Source of the DNA: Candidatus Woesearchaeota archaeon
GTDB lineage: Archaea; Nanobdellota; Nanobdellia; Woesearchaeales; JAGVYF01
Length of the DNA: 64,000 bases
Direction of reading: 5' to 3'
NCBI GenBank assembly: GCA_041650315.1
Contig: JBAZLJ010000001.1
Span: 5,947 to 69,946 of the forward strand
The stretch's first letter is position 1; every line of letters starts with the position of its first letter. The notes beneath the pieces were generated by a model. It saw only the letters and a list, made by a program, of their open reading frames with translations, searched no databases and had not been told where the DNA came from. Shown here piece by piece: positions 29,251 to 50,593 of this stretch. Position numbers and translations under genes: made by a program.

Positions 29251-29362
29251 AGTCTGCAACAGACAAATTTTGTACTTCTTTTTGTGATGAGTGACATTCC
29301 CAGGGACTGGGCACCTTGTCACTGAGATGATTTGGCTATAAAATTTGTAATGGTTGCAAACT
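29251..29362 (+). repeat. Structured repeat element, copy 1 (candidate ncRNA / 3'-UTR element; MITE-like alternative)
   Basis: Nested stems GTCTGCAAC/GTTGCAAAC, CAAATTTT/AAAATTTG and AGTGACA/TGTCACT enclose the conserved TTCCCAGGGACTGGGCACCT. Starts 13 nt after the ileS stop. Confidence 0.6.
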
Positions 29363-50483: not shown

Positions 50484-50593
50484 ATCTGCAACAGGTAAAT
50501 TTTCTAAATTCTCTAGCTAAGACTGACATTCCCGAGGACTGGGTACCTTGTCAGTTCTCATCTTTTGCGATAAAATTTACAATGGTTGCAGAT
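50484..50593 (+). repeat. Structured repeat element, copy 3
   Basis: Stems CTATCTGCAAC/GTTGCAGATAG, TAAATTTT/AAAATTTA and ACTGACA/TGTCAGT around TTCCCGAGGACTGGGTACCT. Starts 8 nt after the stop of the upstream gene. Confidence 0.6.

Follow-up and report, generated by a model that had tools for sequence, protein, structure and literature searches.

Nested hairpin elements between the genes of a Woesearchaeota-like DPANN archaeon are probably insertional palindromic repeats

Introduction

MITEs favour AT-rich intergenic DNA, give rise to stem-loop transcripts, and can insert into one another, and the small BOX, RUP, and SPRITE repeats of pneumococci also insert into each other (PMC10969869). 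The archaeal MITEs in a 2024 review are from Sulfolobus, Halobacterium, Haloquadratum, and Desulfurococcus, and none are from DPANN archaea (PMC10969869). More broadly, the literature on small mobile palindromic repeats in archaea is sparse, and we found no reports there of such repeats in DPANN genomes. DPANN genomes are about 1 Mb in size and are thought to be poor in mobile elements.

REPINs are doublets of REP sequences that form hairpins and are mobilised by RAYT (Y1) transposases. To our knowledge, REPIN/RAYT systems have been described from bacteria only. Compensatory changes are common in the hairpins of REPINs, which form in single-stranded DNA or in mRNA (PMC3116915).

The attC sites of integrons are imperfect palindromes of 57–141 nt that work as folded single strands. 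They are said, from the work of Bouvier in 2009 and Nivina in 2016, to have an unpaired central spacer of about 5–6 nt and extrahelical bases in the L box.

Here, we describe a hairpin element from a stretch of DNA of 64,000 nucleotides (the window). The window is part of the contig k141_3083672 (1,007,146 nt) from the ENA metagenome assembly ERZ27247363, and the host's genome is about 1 Mb with about 39% GC. Judging by its sequence, the host is a Woesearchaeota-like DPANN archaeon; the nearest named relatives of its proteins are from Woesearchaeota and Nanoarchaeota MAGs, and the archaeal housekeeping genes in the region of the window are ileS, gyrA, PAN, NAC, MCM, TBP, Cdc6, and PolD. We will argue that the element is probably an insertional palindromic repeat, non-coding and specific to its lineage, of the MITE/REPIN/ERIC/Correia kind, with a hairpin that is selected in single-stranded DNA or in RNA.

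Three copies with a nested fold

The length of the element is about 110 nt, and rises to about 165 nt in copies with an optional module of two hairpins. The window has three copies, all on the + strand (Table 1) and at the places where an earlier note on this DNA had put them. As that note had also proposed, each copy folds into three nested stems. The outer stem (stem 1) has 9–12 bp, stem 2 has 9 bp, and stem 3 has 7 bp. Above them is an apical mini-stem (CCC/GGG with a 7-nt loop), which lies inside a conserved 20-nt loop. Relative to shuffled sequences, the folding z-scores were -4.6 for copy 1, -7.9 for copy 2, and -5.9 for copy 3. The outer stem, (A)AGTCTGCAAC / GTTGCAGACT(T), amounts to a terminal inverted repeat. 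Stems 1 and 2 are separated by 2 and 4 unpaired nt, and stem 2 has no bulge. Both strands of the element fold equally well. With parameters for single-stranded DNA, we again obtained the nested outer stem, stem 3, and the apical hairpin (for copies 1 and 3, and for the member L019 and the strain variant L024 that are described below).

Two details of the copies need to be corrected relative to the earlier note. In copy 1, the outer stem (GTCTGCAAC...GTTGCAAAC) has a single C·A mismatch. In copy 2, an extra module of about 53 nt interrupts the apical loop (its boundaries are ambiguous by about 7 nt), and the loop motif is best read as TTCCGCTGGACTGGGTACCT. Overall, the copies differ from each other by 22–36% in ungapped comparisons, with 0–2 unpaired stem positions per copy. 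A repeat finder placed them in two families (D7 and D8). The apical motif, TTCCCNNGGACTGGGNACCT, has 3 occurrences at up to 3 mismatches, versus 0.04 expected. The GC content of the element is 0.39–0.45, and it is non-coding, with no ORF that is common to the copies.

A covariance model search, which the earlier note had suggested, was run with a model of 106 positions that was built from five versions of the element (R1). With the filters off, R1 did not find any further copy in the window, and there was no new copy in the 10 kb that we added by walking along the source contig. Copy number is low: 3 in 74 kb of the host's genome.

The earlier note could not match the element to an RNA family, and neither could we. 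In the window, only the RNase P RNA and two tRNAs reached the gathering thresholds of Rfam 15. For the three copies at E up to 10, the best match had E = 0.07, and all of the matches were chance similarities to eukaryotic snoRNAs that scored far below the gathering score. We also considered three kinds of structured RNA motifs from the sequences themselves. Copy 1 has GTGATGA...CTGA around stem 3, which resembles the C (RUGAUGA) and D (CUGA) boxes of an archaeal C/D box RNA with a K-turn, but copies 2 and 3 have GTGGTTA...TTCT and GCTAAGA...TTCT instead. An archaeal H/ACA guide RNA does not fit, as there is no ACA box after the outer stem. Nor does the bulge-helix-bulge splicing motif: the junction of stems 1 and 2, with 2 + 4 unpaired nt, is not two 3-nt bulges that are 4 bp apart.

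Table 1. Coordinates of the hairpin elements and other features of the window
Feature	Start	End	Strand	Details	Score
Stop-free frame	2	15418	-	at least 5,139 codons; runs off the start of the window
AT-rich block	~19130	~19300		T-run/AT repeats
cdc6/orc1	19636	20718
ileS	26170	29238	+	upstream of copy 1
Copy 1	29248	29365	+	stem 1 with AAG/CTT extension, stem 2, stem 3 AGTGACA/TGTCACT	116.7 bits, E 2e-22
Copy 1, apical loop	29297	29316	+	TTCCCAGGGACTGGGCACCT
152-aa ORF	30625	31083	+	function not assigned; upstream of copy 2
Copy 2	31090	31260	+	three stems as in copy 1; stem 3 ATAGCCA/TGGCTAT	102 bits
Copy 2, two-hairpin module	31139	31198	+	apical region; GAAGTCC-TAT-GGACTTC, GAAGTGC-TTATA-GCACTTC
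Copy 2, loop motif	31192	31211	+	best reading
tRNA-like gene	31338	31498	+	~160 nt
THUMP/UPF0020 methyltransferase gene	49348	50475	+	upstream of copy 3
Copy 3	50480	50597	+	stem 1 with CTA/TAG extension, stem 2 T:A, stem 3 ACTGACA/TGTCAGT	124 bits
Copy 3, loop	50529	50548	+	TTCCCGAGGACTGGGTACCT
RNase P RNA, TATA box	50621	50632		CCTTTATAAATA
RNase P RNA (archaeal)	50699	51002	+	downstream of copy 3

Covariation and selection on the fold

We aligned six distinct versions of the element to the model: the three window copies and three further versions from public assemblies. In this alignment, 96% of stem cells pair, and 14 of the 26 pairs have changed on both sides. None of 500 shuffles matched the observed covariation, and slid controls pair at 27–43%. 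RNAalifold, run on an independent MAFFT alignment that was not fitted to the model, gave the same four helices, with 10 two-sided pairs. The compensatory differences that the earlier note had listed for the window copies (C:G versus T:A in stem 2, the variants of stem 3, and the extensions AAG/CTT versus CTA/TAG) are correct pair by pair. The centre of the element is nearly invariant among copies; the termini have changed in L019.

Because the stems change in pairs, the structure must be under selection somewhere in the life cycle of the element. The earlier note had inferred selection on structure from the preserved pairing, and this part of its argument holds. However, the stems of REPINs also show two-sided changes (PMC3116915), so these changes do not discriminate between an RNA and a mobile hairpin of DNA.

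The mismatches give a hint about the strand. In stems 1–3, there are no G·U pairs on the + strand, and 3 of the 5 mismatches are C·A. These three would read as G·U on the minus strand; the hint amounts to three mismatches versus one (P ~ 0.1–0.3). There is also one T·G in the stem extension of a strain variant. These counts are too few to assign a strand, yet they are not usual for an RNA on the + strand that is under selection.

Further members from a metagenome

A scan of 241 million metagenome records for the loop gave 16 loci. Two of them are real members of the family (L016 and L019), and the other 14 are chance matches without flanking stems. Both members are from the JGI metagenome 3300014208, which also contains a strain that is 99% identical to the window. 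Across 185,579 reference genomes (this genome is not among them), we found no members and three GC-rich chance matches in bacteria. Scans of viral contigs with the loop, a signature of the whole element, the two-hairpin module, and a variant loop gave either nothing or GC-rich chance matches.

L016 has the same stems 1 and 2 as the window copies, and its stem 3 has one C·A mismatch. The two-hairpin module of copy 2 recurs in L016 with its order or orientation reversed, and is placed after the 5' strand of stem 3 and ahead of the loop. L019 retains the loop (TTCCCGGGGACTGGGTACCT) and stem 3 (ATAGACA/TGTCTAT), while its outer stem (UGCCAUC/GAUGGCA) and second stem (GUUCGCCA-G/C-UGGCUCAC) have new sequences with unchanged geometry.

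These two members are not located just after genes. L019 separates the TATA box of the gene for Nre from its start codon (ATG), and is divergent from a DHH gene. L016 lies between a divergent gene for a P-type ATPase and an unnamed downstream ORF, which has its own TATA box after the element. The earlier note's rule that the element is always 3' of a gene describes the three copies in the window, but not these two.

The Nre protein next to L019 is absent from the 1.007-Mb source contig (the longest contig with this Nre is 9.9 kb), and a protein search did not find the P-type ATPase next to L016 on the source contig either. Therefore, the family is present in more than one genome (at least two) of that community. 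No additional copies turned up when we searched with the proteins that neighbour L016 and L019.

All five loci have the element in promoter-proximal, AT-rich spacer DNA, and in 5 of 5 cases the orientation is that of the downstream gene (the chance of this is about 1 in 32, or ~0.03). The co-orientation may reflect a function or selection on transcripts, or else strand-specific insertion. Four of the copies have AT-rich, TATA-like boxes 17–24 nt downstream.

Genes and signals around the window copies

Each window copy follows the stop codon or terminator of a gene and precedes the promoter of the next gene, and the flanking genes are housekeeping genes. The earlier note had the copies beginning 8–13 nt after a stop codon on the same strand. 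They are on that strand and are close to the stop codon; the distances that we measured from the end of the stop codon are 10, 7, and 6 nt to the stem extension (for copies 1, 2, and 3), or 15, 12, and 10 nt to the core (TCTGCAAC).

The stop codon of ileS is followed by GGTTTTTCTTT, which includes a run of five Ts, and then by copy 1. Because archaeal polymerases terminate at such runs, transcription of ileS probably does not reach the element. On the other side of a copy, the TATA box of the RNase P RNA starts 24 nt past the end of copy 3.

We did not find a transposase, an integrase, or a reverse transcriptase among the Pfam-annotated genes in the roughly 74 kb that we read, in which several ORFs had no hit to Pfam.

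An extremely AT-rich block of T runs and AT repeats lies just upstream of cdc6/orc1 and the genes for PolD (Table 1). The minimum of the cumulative GC skew coincides with this block, near 19.2 kb and adjoining cdc6, and on sequence grounds the block is a likely candidate for the replication origin. All three copies are to the right of this putative origin and on the + strand, which would be the template for the lagging strand. This arrangement is compatible with single-strand transposition.

Orthologous sites in relatives are empty

We compared the window sites to the corresponding loci of two relatives, L025 (NCBI GCA_974431725.1) and L037, and the L019 site to those of L033 and L038. Protein identities to these relatives are 57–70% (for example, 57–59% for THUMP in L025 and L037, and 70% for Nre in L033). 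In both L025 and L037, the order gyrA-THUMP-RNase P-Sec61beta-NAC is kept, and so is the order of ileS, MgtC, and three small ORFs.

The spacer between ileS and MgtC is 63 nt in L025 and 32 nt in L037, without an element. In L025, a conserved promoter for MgtC (TAATCTTTATATAT) comes directly after the terminator of ileS. After the last small ORF, L025 has a spacer of 62 nt and L037 has one of 170 nt, in which R1 has no match. In L037, the stop codon of THUMP is followed by 3 nt and then by the promoter of the RNase P RNA (CCTTTATAAATA), while the corresponding spacer in the window is about 139 nt, including copy 3. As for the L019 site, it corresponds to a 62-nt spacer in L033 with no match to R1. 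R1 also had no match in L038, where the gene order differs. At the loci from L025 and L037, R1 had no real match at all; the sole hit, which was below the threshold, had 13 bits and E = 3.1 and lies inside ileS.

Overall, 4 of the 4 orthologous sites that we examined are empty, with spacers of about 30–170 nt and no element-like sequence, which implies that the copies are lineage-specific insertions. Within the species, we saw no empty site among the strain assemblies that we compared.

In L025, the relative with 59% identity, the THUMP-RNase P spacer, which holds copy 3 in the window, is filled by a gene with a Fic domain and a 42-aa ORF (L025 11127–11808, - strand). These are possibly a toxin-antitoxin pair.

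Variation between strains and at assembly breaks

Copies 1 and 2 are identical across four assemblies. Copy 3 is alike in the window and in Logan SRR8542065, and differs in the strain from ERZ27249449 and JGI 3300014208 (L023 and L024, 99% identical). The flanks of copy 3 have 1 difference in about 220 nt between the strains. Within the element, a patch of about 45 nt has been rewritten: CTAGCTAAG-ACTGACA-TTCCCGAGGACTGGGTACCT in the window (50513–50548) corresponds to TATGCAATT-ACTGACA-CCCGTTGGAATCGGGTCC in L024 (2931–2964) and L023. The rewritten patch still forms a mini-stem with a 7-nt loop. The strain variant also has two uncompensated changes in its stems (T-A to C·A and C-G to T·G), which suggests that resident copies drift.

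A diversity-generating retroelement does not fit as the cause of the rewritten patch, as the substitutions are not adenine-specific and there is no reverse transcriptase among the annotated genes in reach. We also searched the sequences analysed here for a donor for gene conversion, and found none at up to 4 mismatches.

The Logan contig SRR8542065_37834 ends exactly at the 3' end of copy 2 (L028 11837, or about 31255 in the window). Such an end suggests that the assembly graph branches here, and hence that SRR8542065 contains another copy that shares the 3' half of copy 2.

A probable insertional palindromic repeat

We rank an insertional repeat first because the element is short, non-coding, and AT-rich, has inverted termini, is dispersed, and is absent from orthologous sites. 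Also, it has size variants from nested modules, assembly breaks at the element, and a hairpin that is kept by paired changes. The five contexts are varied: three copies follow stop codons, one is between a promoter and its ATG, and one is between divergent genes. The loops of two members (copy 2 and L016) contain the nested module in opposite orientations. And the end of the Logan contig at copy 2 is what would be expected of a repeat.

If so, copying or recognition might act on the hairpin itself. This hairpin may arise in single-stranded DNA, on the template of the lagging strand or in a transposition intermediate, and the conserved loop could be the recognition site for a putative mobilising enzyme or for a host factor. 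Selection on the copies that propagate would then keep the pairing, and resident copies would drift. If neighbouring genes are affected, for instance through a 3' hairpin on transcripts that read through or a hairpin in the 5' leader of Nre (at L019), this would be a by-product.

The element resembles MITEs in being smaller than about 300 bp, in having dispersed copies, and in its presence or absence at orthologous sites. Like MITEs, ERIC, Correia, and RUP, it is small, AT-rich, and non-coding, with a terminal inverted repeat; it lies in AT-rich spacers near promoters or terminators; its predicted transcripts are stable stem-loops; and internal insertions give size variants. In contrast to MITEs, there is no target-site duplication that we recognised, and no insertion sequence with matching ends in about 74 kb. 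Also, the terminal repeat is short (9–12 bp), and in L019 it has been swapped for another complementary pair. With REPINs, the element shares a length of about 100 nt, non-coding and extragenic copies that are dispersed, and a long hairpin that is kept by compensatory changes (here, in 14/26 pairs). REPINs have no classical target-site duplication, and we recognised none here. But the ends of REPINs (the REP 16-mers) are conserved and the spacer varies, while here the apical loop is conserved and the ends are changeable. REPINs also have tens to hundreds of copies, instead of the handful that we saw. The REP tags GTAG/CGTC (PMC3733652) are absent from the termini of the element.

Some observations do not favour an insertional repeat. 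By eye, we saw no direct repeats that flank the five insertions, although five copies are too few to fix the ends of the element, and the flanks beyond stem 1 (AAG/CTT or CTA/TAG) are complementary instead of being direct repeats. The copy number is low, and a conserved centre with variable termini inverts the pattern of classical MITEs and REPINs. Co-orientation with the downstream gene at all five loci also counts against it. And if the copies are old, then their divergence of 22–36% with so few unpaired positions requires selection in place. The earlier note had described what a MITE should look like: many copies in random orientations, with target-site duplications and without covariation. 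That picture does not match the element, whose copies are few, co-oriented, and strongly covarying. Overall, the element is not proven to be a member of any named family: we found no target-site duplication, matching insertion sequence, transposase, or REP tags, and the centre is more conserved than the ends.

Alternative explanations

The earlier note favoured a family of ncRNAs or 3'-UTR elements. What remains of this is a structured, multi-copy element with two-sided changes, but the tie to 3' ends is not supported, given the empty orthologous sites, the contexts of L016 and L019, and the T5 run. More specifically, the element might be a cis-acting structured RNA in the 3' UTR of the upstream gene, acting as a stabiliser, a processing site, or a terminator. 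The stable folds and covarying stems would suit such an RNA. The three window copies start 6–13 nt past a stop codon and on the strand of that gene, T runs follow copies 1 and 3, and the orientation is common to all five loci and to the neighbouring transcription units. On the other hand, the same genes lack the element at their 3' ends in syntenic relatives, L019 is in a 5' leader, and L016 is between divergent genes. Transcription of ileS probably stops before copy 1, and the + strand has no G·U pairs. As for a terminator, archaeal termination does not need hairpins. We consider a 3'-UTR element to be unlikely. It is quite unlikely, too, that the copies are genes for small ncRNAs, on either strand, which spread by duplication and have a 20-nt loop that serves in protein binding or in pairing to a target. 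The loop (TTCCCRRGGACTGGGYACCT) is almost invariant even though the stems differ completely between copies, all three C·A mismatches would become G·U on the minus strand, and the TATA-like boxes downstream of four copies, if they are bidirectional, could drive transcription of that strand. However, neither strand has a conserved promoter at a fixed distance, the window lacks a complementary target for the loop, and there is no relative in Rfam. It would be odd for an essential recognition loop to be rewritten in a 99%-identical strain, and the hint about the strand comes from three mismatches versus one.

We think it very unlikely that the element is an attC-like recombination site that folds as single-stranded DNA, either as an orphan or as a two-site CALIN (a cluster with no integrase gene) of an archaeal integron. 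Integrons are known in Nanoarchaeota, including Woesearchaeales, and copies 1 and 2, which are 1.8 kb apart, are within the <4-kb rule for clusters of archaeal attC sites (PMC9668308). The element is an imperfect palindrome whose outer stem ends with ...AAC and restarts with GTT..., which is reminiscent of the R'' and R' boxes of attC. Also, two of its stems are separated by an internal loop, its variable top tolerates insertions, and in the window it is just 3' of ORFs with a shared orientation. But CTGCAAC and GTTGCAG in the element depart from the R'' and R' consensus (RYYYAAC and GTTRRRY) at 2 of the 4 degenerate positions on either side, with the AAC and GTT triplets in place. The ten attC sites that we used for reference, nine of them from archaea plus aadA7, have TAACAA...GTTA and a spacer of 5–6 nt from R to L, while the element has GCAACAG...GGTTGCAG and 2 + 4 unpaired nt. 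Neither GTTGCA nor TGCAAC is present in the supplementary sequences of PMC9668308. Stem 2 lacks extrahelical bases, a conserved centre is the opposite of attC, and there is no integrase in reach. Finally, integrons have arrays of promoterless cassettes, but the element is flanked by ileS, MgtC, THUMP, and the RNase P RNA, in an order that is kept in the element-free L025 and L037. The would-be cassette between copies 1 and 2 (MgtC and three small ORFs) is syntenic there, together with ileS.

There is an outside chance that the element is not merely selfish DNA, but represents a new class of loop-presenting structured elements of DPANN archaea. The covarying scaffold would display the 20-nt loop, with its C3/G3 mini-stem and 7-nt loop, to a factor that is encoded by the host or by the element. 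The display would take place in RNA, or in DNA that is single-stranded on the lagging-strand template. The modular insertions near the apex and the hypervariable patch would point to an active, targeted process; site-specific exchange, conversion, and nicking at the loop are examples. More broadly, four atypical features (a conserved loop, termini that covary, strict co-orientation, and a patch that differs between strains) leave a small chance for something more interesting than an insertional repeat.

If the element is an insertional repeat, its conserved loop and covarying terminal stems would point to mobilisation by an enzyme that recognises hairpins (HUH/Y1-type, or another enzyme that is specific for single strands). 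Our results are also a caution for the discovery of ncRNAs: in compact genomes, insertional hairpin DNA can yield both strong covariation and a fixed position after stop codons.

Other features of the region

Downstream of copy 2, there is a tRNA-like gene (Table 1) with an acceptor stem of GCGGCGU/AUGCCGC and a T arm of GCAGGUUCGAACCCUGC, followed by a run of six Ts. Given its length, about 75 nt of the gene must be intron. It was missed by ARAGORN, and by Rfam even at E up to 1. Contigs from the sister strain break inside this gene.

At the left end of the window, the long stop-free frame on the - strand has internal repeats of about 950–990 nt. Its product is probably a giant surface protein; such proteins are common in DPANN archaea. 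Just past the right end of the window, there is an ORF of 2,008 aa and another of more than 1,270 aa (L034).
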